Assembly (NCBI GenBank): GCA_043799545.1
Contig: JAZDNO010000026.1
Span: 76,340 to 140,339, forward strand
DNA: 64,000 bases
Direction of reading: 5' to 3'
Source of the DNA: Methanobacteriota archaeon
GTDB lineage: Archaea > Thermoplasmatota > Thermoplasmata > SG8-5 > DAIRED01
Below, piece by piece: positions 46,442 to 52,834 of this stretch (its first letter is position 1; each line of letters begins with the position of its first letter). Below the pieces are notes generated by a model. The model did no database searches. It saw only the letters and a program-made list of their open reading frames with translations, and was not told where the DNA came from. The translations under genes and the position numbers were made by a program.

Positions 46442-46738
46442 TCATTCGTAAAGCGTGAAGAGTTCGTCGTCCCCGCCCACGTCGAAGAGCCCCATCCTCG
46501 CCCCGCAATCGAGCCAGCCGTGCGCGTAGTTCACGCACGCGAACGCGTTGACCAGGTCGCCGGCTTCCCTGAAGTGCCTGGCGTCTTTGAAGTACGCCGT
46601 CGCCATAGCCATGAAGTCGTCCGCCAGCTTGCGGTTGAAGGAGCGCTCCGGAGCCGCCAGCTTAATTTTCGAGAGGGCTCTCTGAGTCTTCGCCAGATAA
46701 TCGTCGAGGTGCTTTTCCGTGATTCTGTCTGAAGGCAT
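46442..46738 (-). CDS. DUF357 domain protein
   Basis: MATAYFKDARHFREAGDLVNAFACVNYAHGWLDCGARMG; own TATA (TTATTAAG) at about 46763-46770. Confidence 0.92.
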   Translation of the reverse strand: MPSDRITEKHLDDYLAKTQRALSKIKLAAPERSFNRKLADDFMAMATAYFKDARHFREAGDLVNAFACVNYAHGWLDCGARMGLFDVGGDDELFTLYE

Positions 46739-47303
46739 GCAAAATCGGCAAGCGCTTCGCCCTTAATAACGCATCGGCGCGGGCGTTTAGCCTGTCGAAT
46801 ACGTCCGGGGTCCATCCCTCCGCAGCCAGGTGCTTCCGCCTGTCGCGCCAGGCCGAGAAGGCGTAGAGCGCGAGCAGCAACGCGTAGGCCGAGAACACGA
46901 CCGCCGGGGTGCCCCATGACCATCCCTGGAGCTGCACGCCCGGAAGGACTGGATAAAGGACGCGCGTCGTGAAAGTGCCCTCGTGGACCGGAATATCCAC
47001 GAGGATGTGCAGCAGCCAGGCCAAGAGCGCGGGGAGCAGCCGGGGCCGCACCCTCCAGACAATAGCGGCCACGATTCCGAACACGAGGAGGCTGTGGAAC
47101 AGGCGGTATACAACGAGTAACGACTGCGGGACTGTCGCCATGGCGTCGGCGTAATTCACGCTGGCCGTCACGTAGAAGAACAGGTAGAGCTCTATGAGCA
47201 GGAAGCCCAGGTCCGGCAGGACCGAGAAAACCAGGGCCTCGTCGCGCCACCGCTCGTCCCTCGCGTAGAGATTGGTGAACAGCAAGTGGAATATCGGGTC
47301 CAT
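46662..47303 (-). CDS. Membrane-bound metal-dependent hydrolase-like protein (YdjM-type)
   Basis: FH...SVLPDL...FHSLL...LLHILVDIPVH with hydrophobic helices; C-terminal tail overlaps DUF357 by 77 nt. Confidence 0.75.
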   Translation of the reverse strand: MDPIFHLLFTNLYARDERWRDEALVFSVLPDLGFLLIELYLFFYVTASVNYADAMATVPQSLLVVYRLFHSLLVFGIVAAIVWRVRPRLLPALLAWLLHILVDIPVHEGTFTTRVLYPVLPGVQLQGWSWGTPAVVFSAYALLLALYAFSAWRDRRKHLAAEGWTPDVFDRLNARADALLRAKRLPILHAFRQNHGKAPRRLSGEDSESPLEN

Positions 47304-47392
47304 CGAAAGGAAAATATGGATTTTCTAGCGTAAATAATGATTGGTAGGGGTTTTGTGAATGGTGACCCGTCCATCTATCATCTGATTTAGAG

Positions 47393-47579
47393 CCGCTGTA
47401 TCTACGACTCTCAACGAAGTACTAGCATGGTTGATTCTACAAGAGAGTCGATGAATCAATCCTCTATAACTTTGATAGACTCTCCGCAGAATCTACGACT
47501 CCCAGCAATATACCAGCATAGTTGATTCTGCTTAGCGAGTCCGTGAATTAATCTTCAATGACTTTAATGGACTCGCCGC
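47393..47579 (-). repeat. Two tandem 91-92 bp direct repeats containing the herA 3' end (GESIKVIED*) plus about 62 nt of downstream sequence
   Basis: GCGG junctions at 47579-47576, 47487-47484 and 47396-47393. Units are about 75% identical. Copy 47485-47456 reads gga gag tct atc aaa gtt ata gag gat tga versus native ggc gag tcc att aaa gtc att gaa gat taa. Confidence 0.9.
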
Positions 47580-49050
47580 CATGTTTCGTCTCCCTCGCCC
47601 TCACCTCGACTATCATCGGGAATCCGAGGTTCCCCCCGGCGATTAGAGCCATGCCGATGGGGAGGCGCTGGATCTCGTCGTCCATCCCCTTGGTCAGGCC
47701 CTCAATGGACGAAGTCACGGCCTTCAGGTCGAGCGGGTTCGTTATCTTGAGTATGAGCTGTGTGTTGCACTGGCTCAGGACGGATTTGTCCACGCGCGCA
47801 GGCCGCTGGGTGATTATGCAGAGCCCCAGGCCGAACTTGCGGCCTTCGGCCGCTATCGTGCGGATTATCTTGCTGCACGCCTTGACCTCGCCCTGGGGGC
47901 AGTAGTTGTGCGCTTCCTCGAACAAAACCATCATCGGCGGGACCTTCCCCTCCTTGCTCAGCTCATAAAGAGCCGTGGCCAGGCGGTTGACTATCATCTC
48001 GGAGATGTCCGCGTGCACCCCCCTCATGTTGAGGATGGTCGTCATCCCCTTCTGGACGATCTCGCTTATCTTCGTCCCGTTGGCCGCGAAGATGTCGATT
48101 TCCTTCAAATATTGCAGGTCGGATATCAGCGTGCCGCAGTCCACGTCCTCGTTCGCGTCCAGTATGTTGACCAGGTCGTCGATGGTGAAGTTCGGCTTGG
48201 CTGTCTTCAGGGCTTCGATGGCGCTCTTTAGCGTGGGAAGGACGTGCTTGATGTCCTTGACGTTGAGCAGCGAGAGCAGCTCCCTGGCATCCATGTTCGC
48301 CAGCGTGAATTTCAAAGGCTTGGCGTGCGGGTTGGCCTTGGTGTTGGGGGAGAACTCGACAACCTTGTCCTTGTAGCCCCTCGGCGTCACGCCGAAGCGA
48401 TGGGTCGTCGCGTCGCTCTTGCCGCTCTGGCCGAGCGTGGAATATTCGCCGTGCGGGTCCACGATGACGACCGTGACGTTGTGCTTCATCAGCTCCTCGA
48501 TAACCACGCCGCTGATGTAGGACTTGCCGCCGCCTGTCTTGGCGAGGATGCTCATGTGCTTGTTGACGAGCGTGTTGATGTCCAAAAACACCTGGAGGTC
48601 GTGCCCTTTCAGCAGCCCGACGTAAGCGCCGACCTTCTCTCCAGCCTTCAGCCCCAGCACCTGCCGTATCAATGAGTCCTCGGCCTTGAAAACCAGCTCG
48701 CCGGCCCGGACGGGCGTTCCGGGGCTCTGGAGAAGGTTGCGCTCGTCCCTGTACCCTATGACGCTCACGCTCGCCCTGACCTTCTCGTTTATCGGCATCG
48801 GTTGCCCGCTCGCCAGGCGCATGGCCCGCGCCTCTGAGAGGTCGCTGTGGCGCTCGACCTCCATGATTTGGCAGAGCATGTTCCCGTAGCTCTCGTGCTT
48901 CACCTGGACGTAGTCCATGCGCTCCAGCGGAGCCGTGACGCTGCAGCTGAAATCCTGCGTACCTATCTCACCGTAGACTATCCCCACTGGTTCCCCAGCT
49001 TCCGAAGAAGATTGCTCCTGAACAGTATCCGACGCAGCATCCACGCGCAT
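47548..49050 (-). CDS. herA: HerA-like FtsK/HerA family ATPase with N-terminal HAS barrel
   Basis: Walker A ILAKTGGGKS, IVDPHGEY, FEEAH, EGRKFGLG...ITQRP, SQCNTQ. Start at ATG 49050; the ORF-track extension is spurious. Confidence 0.9.
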   Translation of the reverse strand: MRVDAASDTVQEQSSSEAGEPVGIVYGEIGTQDFSCSVTAPLERMDYVQVKHESYGNMLCQIMEVERHSDLSEARAMRLASGQPMPINEKVRASVSVIGYRDERNLLQSPGTPVRAGELVFKAEDSLIRQVLGLKAGEKVGAYVGLLKGHDLQVFLDINTLVNKHMSILAKTGGGKSYISGVVIEELMKHNVTVVIVDPHGEYSTLGQSGKSDATTHRFGVTPRGYKDKVVEFSPNTKANPHAKPLKFTLANMDARELLSLLNVKDIKHVLPTLKSAIEALKTAKPNFTIDDLVNILDANEDVDCGTLISDLQYLKEIDIFAANGTKISEIVQKGMTTILNMRGVHADISEMIVNRLATALYELSKEGKVPPMMVLFEEAHNYCPQGEVKACSKIIRTIAAEGRKFGLGLCIITQRPARVDKSVLSQCNTQLILKITNPLDLKAVTSSIEGLTKGMDDEIQRLPIGMALIAGGNLGFPMIVEVRARETKHGGESIKVIED

Positions 49051-49162
49051 CCCATCCTGCTGTCTTGTATATAACGAATCTCGGATAAAAAGGTTTTCAT
49101 GCATTGGGGGCGAAGGAATAAATACGGTCTCGCGGTATCTAGAAATGGACATGGGTGACTGC

Positions 49163-52100
49163 ATGAGGTTCAAGGGATTCATCGCGGCGGCAGTTGGTTT
49201 CTTGGTGGTGTCGAGCGCTCTGATGGCCGTGCTTCCCGGGGGGGTGGCTGGCGCCGTCTGGAGCACGAATACCGTTGTAAACGAGCCGTCGGGCGCGCAG
49301 CAGAAAAACCCGAGTATGACCGCCGGTCCGGACGGCATCCTTCATTTCGCCTGGGTCGACAACCGGAACGGCGGCTCCGGCTCGGACATATTTTATTCGA
49401 TGAGCGGAGATAACGGCACATCGTTCCTTTACCCCAACATAGAGGTGAGCGAGGGGCGGCTGAGCGGCTACACCCATGGAGCGCCAGACATCGCCGTGAA
49501 CGCCAGCGGAACTGCCTTCGTGGCCTGGCACGAGTTCAACGGTCAGGACACGAACGTCAGGGTGGCGAGGAAAACCCCGTTCGCGGACGCGTTCCAGTCC
49601 CTGGGCATAATACACAAGGTCACCGACGGTAGCCAGGATTCGCCGTCCATCTCGTCGGGCGGAAGCAGCCTGGCAGTCGCGTGGAAAGACGGGCGGTCGG
49701 ACAACCTCGTGAGGATTTGGGACTCGGAGACAGGGGCGCTAGTAAAGGACTTGGCCGGCCACAACGGCTCTGTGACCTCGGTGGCCTTCTCCCCCGACGG
49801 AAAGAGGCTCGCCTCGTCCTCGGAGAGTGGAATAATAAAAGTGTGGAACGCGACCAGCGGGGCCCTCCTTTCAAACCTGACGGGGCATTTGGACATCGTG
49901 ACCTGCGTCGCATGGTCGCCGGACGGCTCAAAGCTGGCATCCTCGTCATGGGACCACACGGTCAAGATATGGAGCGCCGCAGACTACGCCCTCGTCAAAA
50001 CTTTGAGCAATTCGAACAACCCCGTCAACTCCGTAGACTGGTCTCCCGACGGCGCGCTCGTCGTCGCGGGCTACAACGGCGAGGGGATATACACCTCGGA
50101 GATTCCCGGGTTTCCGAACAGCCATTTCAACGTGACAGTCTGGAACGTCGCGTCTGGGACCGCCACCCTGGTGGGCGTGCATAACAACTCGGTCAACTGC
50201 GCGAGGTTCTCGCCAGACGGCGCGCACATCGCTTCTTCGTCCGGGGCAGTGAGCGACTCTTCGCTTGACAACTCCATCAGGATATGGAATGCGGGCTCGC
50301 TGTCGCTGGTTAGCGTAATCAACGTCGCGGGCGGATACGTCAATTCCGTGTCGTGGGGCCAAAACGGCATGCTCGCCGCGGGCGTCGAGAACGGTTCGGT
50401 GACGACCTACTGGAACCCCGCCATCAACAACACCGCCAGGGGGTTCATGTCCGCCGGGCCCGGAGCAGTGAAGGCCACAGACTGGCTGGCAAGCGGTCAG
50501 CGCATAGCCACCGGCGGGATGTCGGCGATAGCCACGGTCTGGAACTCAAGCTCGGCCGCGCGGGTCGCCGCGACGAGCCGAGGCGCCAACACCATACACG
50601 GGGTCTCGCTCTCGCCCGACGGGCGGTTCCTGGCGACGGGCAGCGGCAACTCGGCGCTATACAGGCGCTCGGAGAGCCATGTCTACTGCGCGGTATCTGT
50701 CAACGGTGGCGTCACCTGGCCTATCCAGACGAGGGTGGACTCGGTGGGCGCGTTCGAGCTCGGCTCGCCAAGCGTCAGCATCGGCGCGAACGGCGACATA
50801 GGCGTTGCCTGGTGGGAGGCCAGAAACGGGGGCACTCCGAACATTTACTATGCGAATTCCACGGACGGCGGAGCGACCTTCGCCCAGGACACGAGGCTGA
50901 GCGGCGGGGGCGGAGCCAAATTCGATCCATCCATTGCGCTTGATGAAAAGGGGGTCGGCCACGTCGCCTGGCACGATGAGAGGGACAAGGACATCACGGG
51001 CTACCTCGACCGTTTTGACATCTACTACGGCAGGTCGGATTCGCCGGGGGTCAACGTGCGCGTGAACGCAACCGCCGTGGATGTCCAGCAGCAGAGCGCC
51101 GACATAGACGTCTCCAAGAACGGCAGCACCGTGGCCATCGTTTGGGTGGAGGACAGCGTCTCCATCAAGGTCGCGCAATCGAACGACGGTGGCGCCTCCT
51201 TCGGACTGCCCTCGGTAATCAGCGACACCGCGGTGGGCGTGCGCTACCTGCCGACGGTTGTCATCGCAGGAGGACATGTCCATGCGGCGTGGGAGGATTA
51301 CAGGCGGGGAGACTCCAACGTCTACTTCTCCAGCACTGTCCAAAGCGACGAGTGGCCGCCATCGGTCATAGGCGTTCAGCCCGCGCCAGGGGCGGCGACT
51401 GTCTCGGCCTACTCGCCCATCGTCGTCAAGTTCTCCGAGCCCGTGAAACGCACTTCCTTCGAATCGGCGTTCCGGATATCCGACGGCACCACTGCATGGA
51501 CGGCCGAGAACCTGGTAATGACCTGGTCCGCTTACGGCAATTCCGTGTCCTTGGAGCCGTTTGGCTGGCATCTGTCGTATTACAGGACGTACACCGCGAC
51601 TATCTCGGCAACTGTGGAGGACATGAAATCCAACGTAATGGCCGCGCCCTATTCGTGGACTTTCTCGACCGGAAGCGACCTCGACGGTCCGCTGGTCAAG
51701 CTAGTTTCAGCTCCCGCGGAGGTGGACTACGGCGCAACGGCGACAGTCATGGTTTCCGTTGTCGAATACACCGGCATCGCAAACATCACATTGACCTACA
51801 AATTGAACGGAACTGGAGCCTTTGCAAGCACCGCCATGGTCGTCAACTCGGTCCATAACTACGAAGCGGCGATACCGGCCCAGGGAGTGTTGGGAACCAT
51901 CGTTTTCTACGTCTGGGCGAGCGACACACTGGGCAACATCGGCACCCTGCCAGCAAACCTGAGTGCCGACCGGTATCTGGAGATAAAGGTCGTCGACCGC
52001 ACGCCTCCCGAGATATCCCACACCCCGGTTGAAAGCCTCGAATTCGACCGTGAAGTCACGGTGAGTGCGATTGTGACAGACGGAATCGGCGTCACGGCCG

Positions 52101-52834
52101 TCAGCCTCGAATACAACACGGTTTCGAGCGACGTCGTCCACGTTTCGAACATGACGAACGGGCCCGTAGGCAGCGACTACACGGGTACGCTCCCGGTCCA
52201 GGGGAACATCGGAACTTACTCCTACCGCATCGTGGCCACCGATTCTTCGAACAACACGGCTTCGACATCGTTCTACAACGTCCTATCCGTCGACCTCCAG
52301 AGCCCGACCCTGACAACGCCCGTTGCGAGCCAGCAATCCGACGGAAGCATCCTGATCACAGTGACCGCCTCGGACAACCACGAGCTTGCGAGCGTCACGC
52401 TGCACTTCATCCCGGTGGGAGGCTCGCGCTACATCCAGAAGGACATGTCACCCGCAGGGCCGGCCGGAGAATACTCCGCGACCATCCTGGAGCAGGAGCA
52501 GACCGGCACGTTCAAGTTCTACGTCAACGCGACCGACCCGTCCGGAAACTCGGCCTCGTCCCTAAGCATGAACGACGGGAAGCCATACTCCCTGTGGGTG
52601 GAGGGAAAGCTGCCGCCGCTGTCCGTGATACTGGTCATCTCGCTCGTGGTCATAGCCATCGGGCTCGCGGCTCTGGTTTATCTTCTGAGAAGGAGGCGCC
52701 GGCGCCCCCGCGCGAAATCGGGAATCGTCGGCCAGCCAGAGCATCCGCTGGAGTCGGTAAACGTGCCTGTGAATGCGCCGCAAAAGCCCGGAAAGGCTCC
52801 GCCTGCCCAGGGCAAGCCCCCCAAAGCGGGCTGA
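49163..52834 (+). CDS. Membrane-anchored surface protein: BNR/sialidase-like propeller with inserted WD40 propeller, Ig-like domains, C-terminal TM and basic tail
   Basis: Signal peptide. WD40 repeats GHNGSVTSVAFSPDGKRLASS and GHLDIVTCVAWSPDGSKLASSSWD. Asp-box-like SxDGGxTF. Big_5-like domain and three tandem Ig/Fn3-like units. TM VILVISLVVIAIGLAALVYLL followed by RRRRRR. Confidence 0.88.
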   Translation: MRFKGFIAAAVGFLVVSSALMAVLPGGVAGAVWSTNTVVNEPSGAQQKNPSMTAGPDGILHFAWVDNRNGGSGSDIFYSMSGDNGTSFLYPNIEVSEGRLSGYTHGAPDIAVNASGTAFVAWHEFNGQDTNVRVARKTPFADAFQSLGIIHKVTDGSQDSPSISSGGSSLAVAWKDGRSDNLVRIWDSETGALVKDLAGHNGSVTSVAFSPDGKRLASSSESGIIKVWNATSGALLSNLTGHLDIVTCVAWSPDGSKLASSSWDHTVKIWSAADYALVKTLSNSNNPVNSVDWSPDGALVVAGYNGEGIYTSEIPGFPNSHFNVTVWNVASGTATLVGVHNNSVNCARFSPDGAHIASSSGAVSDSSLDNSIRIWNAGSLSLVSVINVAGGYVNSVSWGQNGMLAAGVENGSVTTYWNPAINNTARGFMSAGPGAVKATDWLASGQRIATGGMSAIATVWNSSSAARVAATSRGANTIHGVSLSPDGRFLATGSGNSALYRRSESHVYCAVSVNGGVTWPIQTRVDSVGAFELGSPSVSIGANGDIGVAWWEARNGGTPNIYYANSTDGGATFAQDTRLSGGGGAKFDPSIALDEKGVGHVAWHDERDKDITGYLDRFDIYYGRSDSPGVNVRVNATAVDVQQQSADIDVSKNGSTVAIVWVEDSVSIKVAQSNDGGASFGLPSVISDTAVGVRYLPTVVIAGGHVHAAWEDYRRGDSNVYFSSTVQSDEWPPSVIGVQPAPGAATVSAYSPIVVKFSEPVKRTSFESAFRISDGTTAWTAENLVMTWSAYGNSVSLEPFGWHLSYYRTYTATISATVEDMKSNVMAAPYSWTFSTGSDLDGPLVKLVSAPAEVDYGATATVMVSVVEYTGIANITLTYKLNGTGAFASTAMVVNSVHNYEAAIPAQGVLGTIVFYVWASDTLGNIGTLPANLSADRYLEIKVVDRTPPEISHTPVESLEFDREVTVSAIVTDGIGVTAVSLEYNTVSSDVVHVSNMTNGPVGSDYTGTLPVQGNIGTYSYRIVATDSSNNTASTSFYNVLSVDLQSPTLTTPVASQQSDGSILITVTASDNHELASVTLHFIPVGGSRYIQKDMSPAGPAGEYSATILEQEQTGTFKFYVNATDPSGNSASSLSMNDGKPYSLWVEGKLPPLSVILVISLVVIAIGLAALVYLLRRRRRRPRAKSGIVGQPEHPLESVNVPVNAPQKPGKAPPAQGKPPKAG

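Follow-up and report, generated by a model that had tools for sequence, protein, structure and literature searches.

Silently recoded copies of the herA gene end stand in tandem with a structured, gene-less module in an uncultured Thermoplasmata archaeon

What leaves a second copy of a gene's last codons behind the gene, encoding the same residues with different codons? Duplicated gene ends are usually taken for marks left at tRNA genes by large integrating elements. In the present case the gene codes for a protein, and the codon pattern can therefore inform where tRNA cases cannot, the displaced copy apparently having been shaped by coding selection. The locus lies in a stretch of 64,000 nucleotides from an uncultured Thermoplasmata archaeon, analysed as a whole and termed the window. 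The gene in question, herA, encodes a HerA/DUF87 repair helicase with the Pfam domains DUF87 and HerA_C and occupies 47548–49056 on the minus strand, corresponding to ~502 codons by comparison with homologues (490–530 aa), with a mechanical open reading frame reaching up to 49338; its alignment with congeners spans 1509 nt. The C-terminal peptide of HerA is conserved in four families of the order. Divergent from herA lies a gene for a 1229-codon WD40/Big_5 repeat protein (49145–52834, plus strand), and the same neighbour is present in the closest relative (L047) and in a further congener (G001). All data used were metagenome assemblies (MAGs or metagenome contigs).

The working end of herA, here termed A1 (47577–47548, minus), encodes the residues G-E-S-I-K-V-I-E-D followed by a TAA stop. 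Starting 92 bases downstream (47485–47456, minus), the identical nine residues are encoded once more, this time followed by TGA (copy 2, termed A2). The two segments differ at 7 of 30 nt, six of these being third codon positions and one the middle base of the stop, so that all seven differences are silent. No ATG, GTG or TTG precedes the second copy in its frame, which opens only after a TGA overlapping the last herA codons. The units measure 92 and 91 nt with a GCGG at each junction, the array region has a GC content of 43.3% against 59% for the window, and the GC content at third codon positions is 0.84 for herA and 0.50 and 0.33 for its two end copies. All of these properties had been listed in a preliminary description of the locus, namely the tandem second end with its silent differences, the missing start codon, the spacing, the GCGG bounds and the low GC and GC3 values, and all of them held on re-measurement.

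The same description had argued that the silent-only pattern is not a product of chance, and our calculations agree. Seven random substitutions retained the peptide and the stop in 0 of 300,000 trials, and codon position alone gave P = 2.8e-4. For a duplication with one selected and one neutral copy, the kindest drift model, we obtained P = 6e-4 for the window pair. In line with these statistics and with the origin proposed at the outset, the second copy resembles a formerly coding herA end, selected elsewhere or earlier, and not a drifting local duplicate. A diversity-generating retroelement was considered as a source of the differences and rejected, as the substitutions are mixed (C/A, C/T, T/C, T/A, A/G) and all silent.

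The array is built from units that each comprise the herA end, i.e. the last nine codons and the stop, and a 61–62 nt spacer module with two hairpins. Unit 1 (92 nt; 47486–47577, minus) consists of the working end A1 including its stop (47548–47577) and spacer S1 (47486–47547), and unit 2 (91 nt; 47395–47485, minus) of the displaced end A2 (47456–47485) and spacer S2 (47395–47455). Past the last junction, alignment revealed a decayed third gene-end remnant (47360–47394, minus), the same remnant being present in L047. A 213-codon gene without a Pfam family (46662–47303, minus) directly follows the array both here and in L047. The first structural element of the spacer is an inverted copy of the start of the coding segment. 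In unit 1 it covers 8 nt (47535–47542, minus), lies 5 nt past the stop and pairs with 47569–47576. In unit 2 it covers 7 nt (47443–47449, minus) and contains one compensatory pair relative to unit 1 (C-G to A-T), a silent change in the Gly codon being mirrored in the inverted copy. The second element, hairpin 2, extends over 47486–47531 (minus) in unit 1, where 8-bp arms (47524–47531 and 47486–47493) enclose a 30-nt loop and the structure abuts the GG of the next copy; its counterpart in unit 2 (47395–47440, minus) is partly decayed and retains six of the eight arm pairs.

These features extend beyond the window. Hairpin 2 generally has 8-bp arms and a loop of 27–30 nt, its fold is predicted by ViennaRNA in the intact units, and its 3' arm directly abuts the GG that opens the next gene-end copy. 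A compensatory change in the arms (T-A to C-G) is present in the congener L049. Spacer length stays within 59–66 nt and the structure is conserved across lineages, the only invariants at the junctions being GCGG at herA and GG at other loci. The spacers had initially been described as diverging freely and the ~92-bp unit as a collapsed remnant of something larger. Neither view stood, S1 and S2 being 76% identical (47/62) with two conserved hairpins in common, and the 61–62 nt spacer being a conserved structured module. The 5' arm of hairpin 2 together with the bases that follow resembles the start of the herA-end segment, and hairpin 2 itself may have originated from herA-end copies of an earlier layer. 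Ten GANTC motifs were counted in the 187 nt of positions 47393–47579, where ~0.7 would be expected. They are located in the Glu-Ser codons, the inverted copies of these codons, both hairpin arms and one loop copy, the excess arising because the Glu-Ser codon core is repeated within the unit in both direct and inverted orientation. Rfam covariance models yielded zero matches for window positions 46500–48500 at E values up to 1, and Tandem Repeats Finder did not report the herA array, its units being too diverged.

The relationship between the inverted copy and the coding segment is specific to each unit. For helix 1, column-based covariation was replaced by matching within each unit, since MAFFT shifts the register between rows. 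Every spacer-bearing unit was found to contain, just past the stop, an inverted copy of the start of its own coding segment of 7–13 nt, compared with mean matches of 1.5 nt for shuffled sequences and 2.9 nt across units. The match of the inverted copy to the coding segment of its own unit, which lies upstream, exceeds that to the following one (8 versus 5, 9 versus 8 and 13 versus 5 nt in examples), and this own-unit fit also holds for the now non-coding A2 of the window, consistent with A2 and S2 having formed the terminal unit at an earlier time. Terminal gene-end copies that have no spacer lack the inverted copy. It is our conjecture that the hairpin formed by the last codons and the inverted copy acts on the 3' end of the herA mRNA.

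Comparing the locus among congeners revealed that the number of units varies: one in L047 and L048, which represent the closest relative with a HerA 95% identical to that of the window, two in the window and in L049, three in G001, and at least five in L050. In L047/L048 the single gene end is followed by a shortened spacer and then by the decayed remnant, as behind unit 2 of the window. The two copies of L049 lie 96 nt apart with seven differences, all silent, and among the three of G001 the second differs from the first silently only, while the third carries one V-to-A change. L050 contains its working end and at least four further 92-nt units that are near-identical to each other and reach the end of the contig, the coding-like part being changed non-silently from unit 2 onward. 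Outside the genus, a second, silently different copy lies 290 nt downstream in G015, a member of another family in the same order. Silent differences are thus present in four more secondary copies, A2 and A3 of G001 (A3 with the additional V-to-A change), A2 of L049 and A2 of G015. As judged from this set of relatives, a recoded copy of the herA end is a recurrent feature and not an accident of the window assembly. The preliminary description had asked for relatives with a single unit, which L047 and L048 provide, and would have been refuted by the same two units in all relatives with no island ever at the site; the counts run from 1 to at least 5. Repeated stacking, also suggested there, is apparent from the three units of G001 and the at least five of L050. 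A search of the source genome with the 91–92 nt unit, one of the checks recommended there, returned only the herA locus; relatives contained the arrays described above, and a scan of viral contigs gave no match.

Between the two herA-end copies of G015 lie two members of a dispersed repeat family (L012 2049–2700; G015:C127) that was matched 38 times in G015 and up to 28 times in congeners. In the genus of G015, the herA spacers are thus made up of a dispersed repeat different from the 100–130 nt family described below. A member of this family has a hairpin at both ends, the right-end hairpin abutting the next GG junction. The idea that copy 2 of G015 is part of the flanking repeat was rejected, as another tandem pair of the repeat has unrelated sequence at this position.

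The spread of copy numbers bears on two simple origins of the array. Two co-occurring strains might have been joined in tandem by the assembler, and every sequence at hand indeed comes from a MAG or a metagenome contig, L049 and L050 even from one sample with two related strains. Yet the junction has 4 nt in common and the longest exact match between units is ~11 nt by reading, too short for a k-mer join, and differing copy numbers and unit types recur in independent assemblies from different sources, which renders an artefact hardly credible. Slippage between two GCGG motifs followed by drift, with the silent pattern arising by chance, would account for the GCGG microhomology bounding the units, for head-to-tail units whose number varies (1, 2, 2, 3, at least 5) as in a minisatellite, and for the recent in-situ amplification of near-identical units in L050. 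It is contradicted by the low probability under the most favourable drift model for the window alone together with the recurrence of the pattern in four further copies, by the presence of the same module at unrelated loci, and by the distribution of the differences, as 6 of 9 third positions of the sense codons differ compared with 24% of the spacer sites. Neutral divergence from a local duplicate fits only the young L050 array, and as an origin of the window pair we regard it as very improbable.

The spacers belong to two types, alpha in units 1 and 2 of the window and unit 1 of G001 (identity 0.53–0.76; 0.63 between the first spacers of G001 and the window) and beta in unit 2 of G001, unit 1 of L049 and L050 (0.63–0.73), with identities of 0.42–0.55 between the types. 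The unit order of G001 is therefore chimeric, an alpha unit being followed by a beta unit, and this second unit is only 2 nt apart in its coding part from unit 1 of L049, which is the working end there; both carry a beta spacer. A1 of the window has 3 differences to A1 of G001 versus 7 to A1 of the closest relative L047, opposite in order to the identity of the entire herA gene to that of the window (0.80 for G001 and 0.87 for L047). Toward the far side of the arrays the copies decay, as seen for the remnant in the window and L047, for units 2 and beyond in L050 and for the V-to-A change in A3 of G001.

To these observations we give a reading that we consider to have an even chance of being correct: whole units would be added at the side of the array that faces the gene and would pass between diverged lineages, each displaced copy preserving a former working herA end. 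The array would accordingly constitute a stack, with the copy in use nearest the gene and the formerly used ends farther downstream. Diverged relatives would be the source of the new units; arrays might recombine unequally through their homology, or an excised unit might insert again at the GG junction, any enzyme in this step being conjectural. The incoming copy would become the working herA end and push the previous one downstream, where displaced copies would then decay; local amplification or loss of units may also occur, as in L050. If both copies had been under coding selection in separate lineages, differences that are exclusively silent would be expected alongside nearly saturated silent sites. 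Gene-side stacking would further account for the own-unit inverted copies even in non-coding units, for the alpha-beta order in G001 and for the decay of distal copies. Neither a donor nor an excised unit nor a recombination junction was observed in the assemblies compared.

Several points temper this reading. The silent sites in the coding parts of A1 and A2 are far more diverged than the spacers S1 and S2, which requires either constraint on the spacer or a crossover between coding part and spacer and counts against gene-side gain from another lineage as the best explanation. For the unit order of G001, an ancestral alpha-beta array with differential loss fits equally well; it needs, however, the second copy to stay intact while non-coding. 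A sliding-window comparison of herA gave weak hints of mosaicism with no clear breakpoint near the 3' end, and the genealogies of the units are poorly resolved with ten codons per copy.

Genes other than herA carry the hairpin module as well. The two arms of hairpin 2, spaced as in a hairpin, were located three times in the genome against ~0.03 expected by our own estimate, namely behind herA, behind tRNA-Phe and behind a 97-codon open reading frame without a Pfam family, and at all three an inverted copy precedes the hairpin and GG with a gene-end copy follows it, the gene-end copy flanking the modules being 13–33 nt long. The element was thereby found not to be dedicated to herA, as had first been supposed, recoded or duplicated ends also being present at seven or more other genes (see below). 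The tRNA-Phe module (G000:C10:129496-129536, minus; L073 2997–3037) contains an 8-bp-arm hairpin 47 nt behind the tRNA (L073 3084–3158), with a 10-nt inverted copy of the T-arm before it and GG plus a 13-nt direct T-arm copy after it. One more unit is present at this locus in G001, where 25 nt of the tRNA 3' end are copied and the hairpin exhibits compensatory changes. The third module (G000:C2:48861-48901; L074 3362–3402) lies behind the 97-codon frame (L074 3044–3337) and is present both in the window species and in G001. Here the inverted copy, 11 nt long in G001, tracks three silent differences between the orthologous gene ends, while the direct copy past the hairpin has decayed differently in the two genomes. 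The pairing between working end and inverted copy is thus maintained and the displaced direct copy is not; together with the decay of distal copies, the recurrence of the module at other loci and its compensatory arm changes bear on the module being maintained.

This asymmetry also bears on the possibility that copy 2 is under selection where it lies, through frameshifting, read-through, an RNA processing step that removes one unit, or a tiny peptide. Secondary copies that stay intact over genus-level divergence speak for such a use, as do the second copy of L049, which shares the herA frame with only one TGA and an open spacer in between, and that of G015, which lies within a 17-codon ATG open reading frame. 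The frame relation is, however, not constant, being -1 in the window and G001 and 0 in L049, and copy 3 of G001 lacks a start and is preceded by a stop at a distance of two codons. Non-silent decay affects distal copies as well as the direct copies at the C2 locus, which argues against general selection in place, and inspection of the folds by eye gave no bulge-helix-bulge joining equivalent positions of the two copies. On account of the inconsistent frames and missing starts we rejected translation of copy 2 in place, and selection in place as a whole we consider improbable.

Recoded gene ends were also searched for across the genome by scanning 9,951 open reading frames for C-terminal octapeptides that recur downstream, an approach that detects only pairs that are still coding-like. 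Besides herA, the scan returned at least seven further genes, several of the pairs showing many silent changes and one having nine nucleotide changes over seven codons, all silent. The scan proves, at the level of the encoded peptides, that recoded gene-end pairs exist, and gives no frequency or share of decayed pairs. Three of the spacers recovered in this way are members of a dispersed gene-less family of 100–130 nt with ~28 loci in the source genome (G000) and 13–16 in G001, mostly at different sites (examples are C12:94098-94234, C9:8158-8284, C31:7794-7903, C8:7724-7822 and C28:16281-16370). Its flanking direct repeats measure 13–66 nt and are identical for young insertions, one of which closes the upstream gene copy with its own TGA. 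Some copies are located at gene 3' ends, one duplicates a gene 5' end and one a region upstream of a tRNA. A classification of the modules as classical MITEs was rejected, as the hairpin 2 family occupies only three loci with flanking repeats of 13–33 nt and the other family (~28 loci) has repeats of 13–66 nt.

One member of this dispersed family lies between two copies of a gene end of ~21 codons (G000:C22:129597-129699 and flanks; L118). The two copies in the window genome differ at 20 of 63 nt with only four amino-acid changes, and in G001 the site is empty and the gene end present once. This single copy and its downstream flank group with the downstream copy of the window genome (13 of 63 differences, one amino-acid change), which argues that the two copies were not duplicated in place after the split from G001 and that one of them came from elsewhere or is much older. 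At two neighbouring genes (C24:70340 and C24:65844; L088 and L119) the last 6–12 codons recur in recoded form ~40 nt past the stop, and a recognisable dispersed element was not found between the copies. At each of them the gene end is present once in G001 and is more similar to the upstream copy, the differences being small (4, 5 and 7 nt).

Could the 92-nt units then be attL/attR scars of a classical integrative element, a virus or plasmid using a tyrosine integrase or a casposase at the herA 3' end, that has lost its cargo? Duplication of a gene end, one copy having formerly been coding, is what att sites would be expected to show, the direct repeats of the target 3' end leave the gene intact, and the tRNA-Phe hairpin is accompanied by copied tRNA 3' ends of the kind that integrases typically leave. 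The source genome encodes four tyrosine recombinases and in addition three Y1 single-strand transposases, none of them inside the window; an IS110-type recombinase was not found in this genome, which is 94% complete. The junctions have only GCGG in common. Opposed to such an element is the constant 59–66 nt spacer with its conserved structure, unlike random deletion remnants. The occurrence of copies at many genes would moreover require many gene-specific elements. An integrase- or casposase-bearing island between herA-end copies, the main prediction of the preliminary description, was not encountered in 22 genomes of the order, 401 of the class, the viral contigs and one metagenome scan, all searched with a strict motif that covers lineages with this HerA terminus. 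The pattern scan of the metagenome for herA-end copies gave two chance matches only. Taken together, a lost integrative element seems to us an improbable origin of the array.

In G001, a 1135-codon M6-peptidase/CARDB gene (L022 5602–9009; G001:C47, minus) lies between the array and the downstream gene. This 3.4-kb gene is absent in the window and in L047, and the insert is flanked by a 10-nt direct repeat. We rejected it as mobile cargo, its product being a secreted M6 peptidase with a CARDB domain.

Among known systems, the tRNA-linked repeats (TLRs) of E. coli appear to be the closest description in print to the herA array; they comprise 22 units at ten loci with one to five per locus (Egan and Landy 1978; in PMC8144298), each unit being gene-less, ending in 18–19 bp of the upstream tRNA or rRNA gene and mostly without an assigned function (PMC8144298). 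Like these, the herA units stand in tandem directly behind a gene, each with a copy of its 3' end and devoid of genes, and the tRNA-Phe module of the same hairpin family does follow a tRNA. In contrast to the E. coli repeats, which are confined to tRNA and rRNA genes and carry an identical copy, herA is protein-coding and its copy is recoded at silent sites (7/30 nt), and the unit contains an inverted gene-end copy and a shared hairpin.

Archaeal and bacterial integrative elements leave attL/attR duplications in tRNA genes or gene 3' ends, and cargo-less elements of the CIME type accrete at the 3' end of the streptococcal fda gene. The herA array resembles these systems in its duplicated gene 3' end, intact gene, tandem stacking of sites and non-coding displaced copy, whereas it differs in the constant size and conserved structure of its units, in a core of only GCGG, and in a site without integrase or cargo in the genomes searched. 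Casposons insert at the 3' end of aEF-2 and are characterized by Cas1, a polymerase, terminal inverted repeats and target duplications of ~14–15 bp; the use of the 3' end of an essential archaeal gene is shared with herA, but Cas1, polymerase, terminal inverted repeats and 14–15 bp duplications were not seen at the herA units. Elements of the IS200/IS605 family are not known to make a target duplication and recognize a 4–5 nt target, and their gene-less hairpin derivatives are known as PATEs and REP elements. The modules described here are likewise small, gene-less and defined by hairpins, in a genome with three Y1 transposase genes, yet they are flanked by a gene-end copy of 13–33 nt (hairpin 2 family) or up to 66 nt (the other dispersed family).

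The hairpin shared with tRNA-Phe and a further gene, inverted copies that track silent changes, and the many recoded ends point to small non-coding modules that settle at the gene ends of uncultured archaea and leave the genes unbroken, a phenomenon that would be widespread and is poorly described. If units are exchanged between lineages, the arrays would preserve a natural record of recombination among members of the genus, and the modules may also shape mRNA 3' ends. A bolder reading, which we deem rather unlikely, is that the units constitute an undescribed class of gene-less, guide-bearing insertion modules, in which the inverted copy selects or holds the target and the module lands at a gene end with the gene copy left complete, so that arrays like that of herA would preserve, in dated order, the earlier gene-end alleles of different lineages. 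Were it true, herA would be the first case in which codon patterns reveal both the direction and the source of growth.

Single herA-end copies at contig starts were noted in G117 and G249, the second copy being absent from both genomes. The contig of G117, which belongs to another family of the class, opens with 8 nt that lead into the GGCGG of its herA end (L029 1–570; G117:C118), and this end is followed by a DUF7557 and ParE toxin-antitoxin pair.
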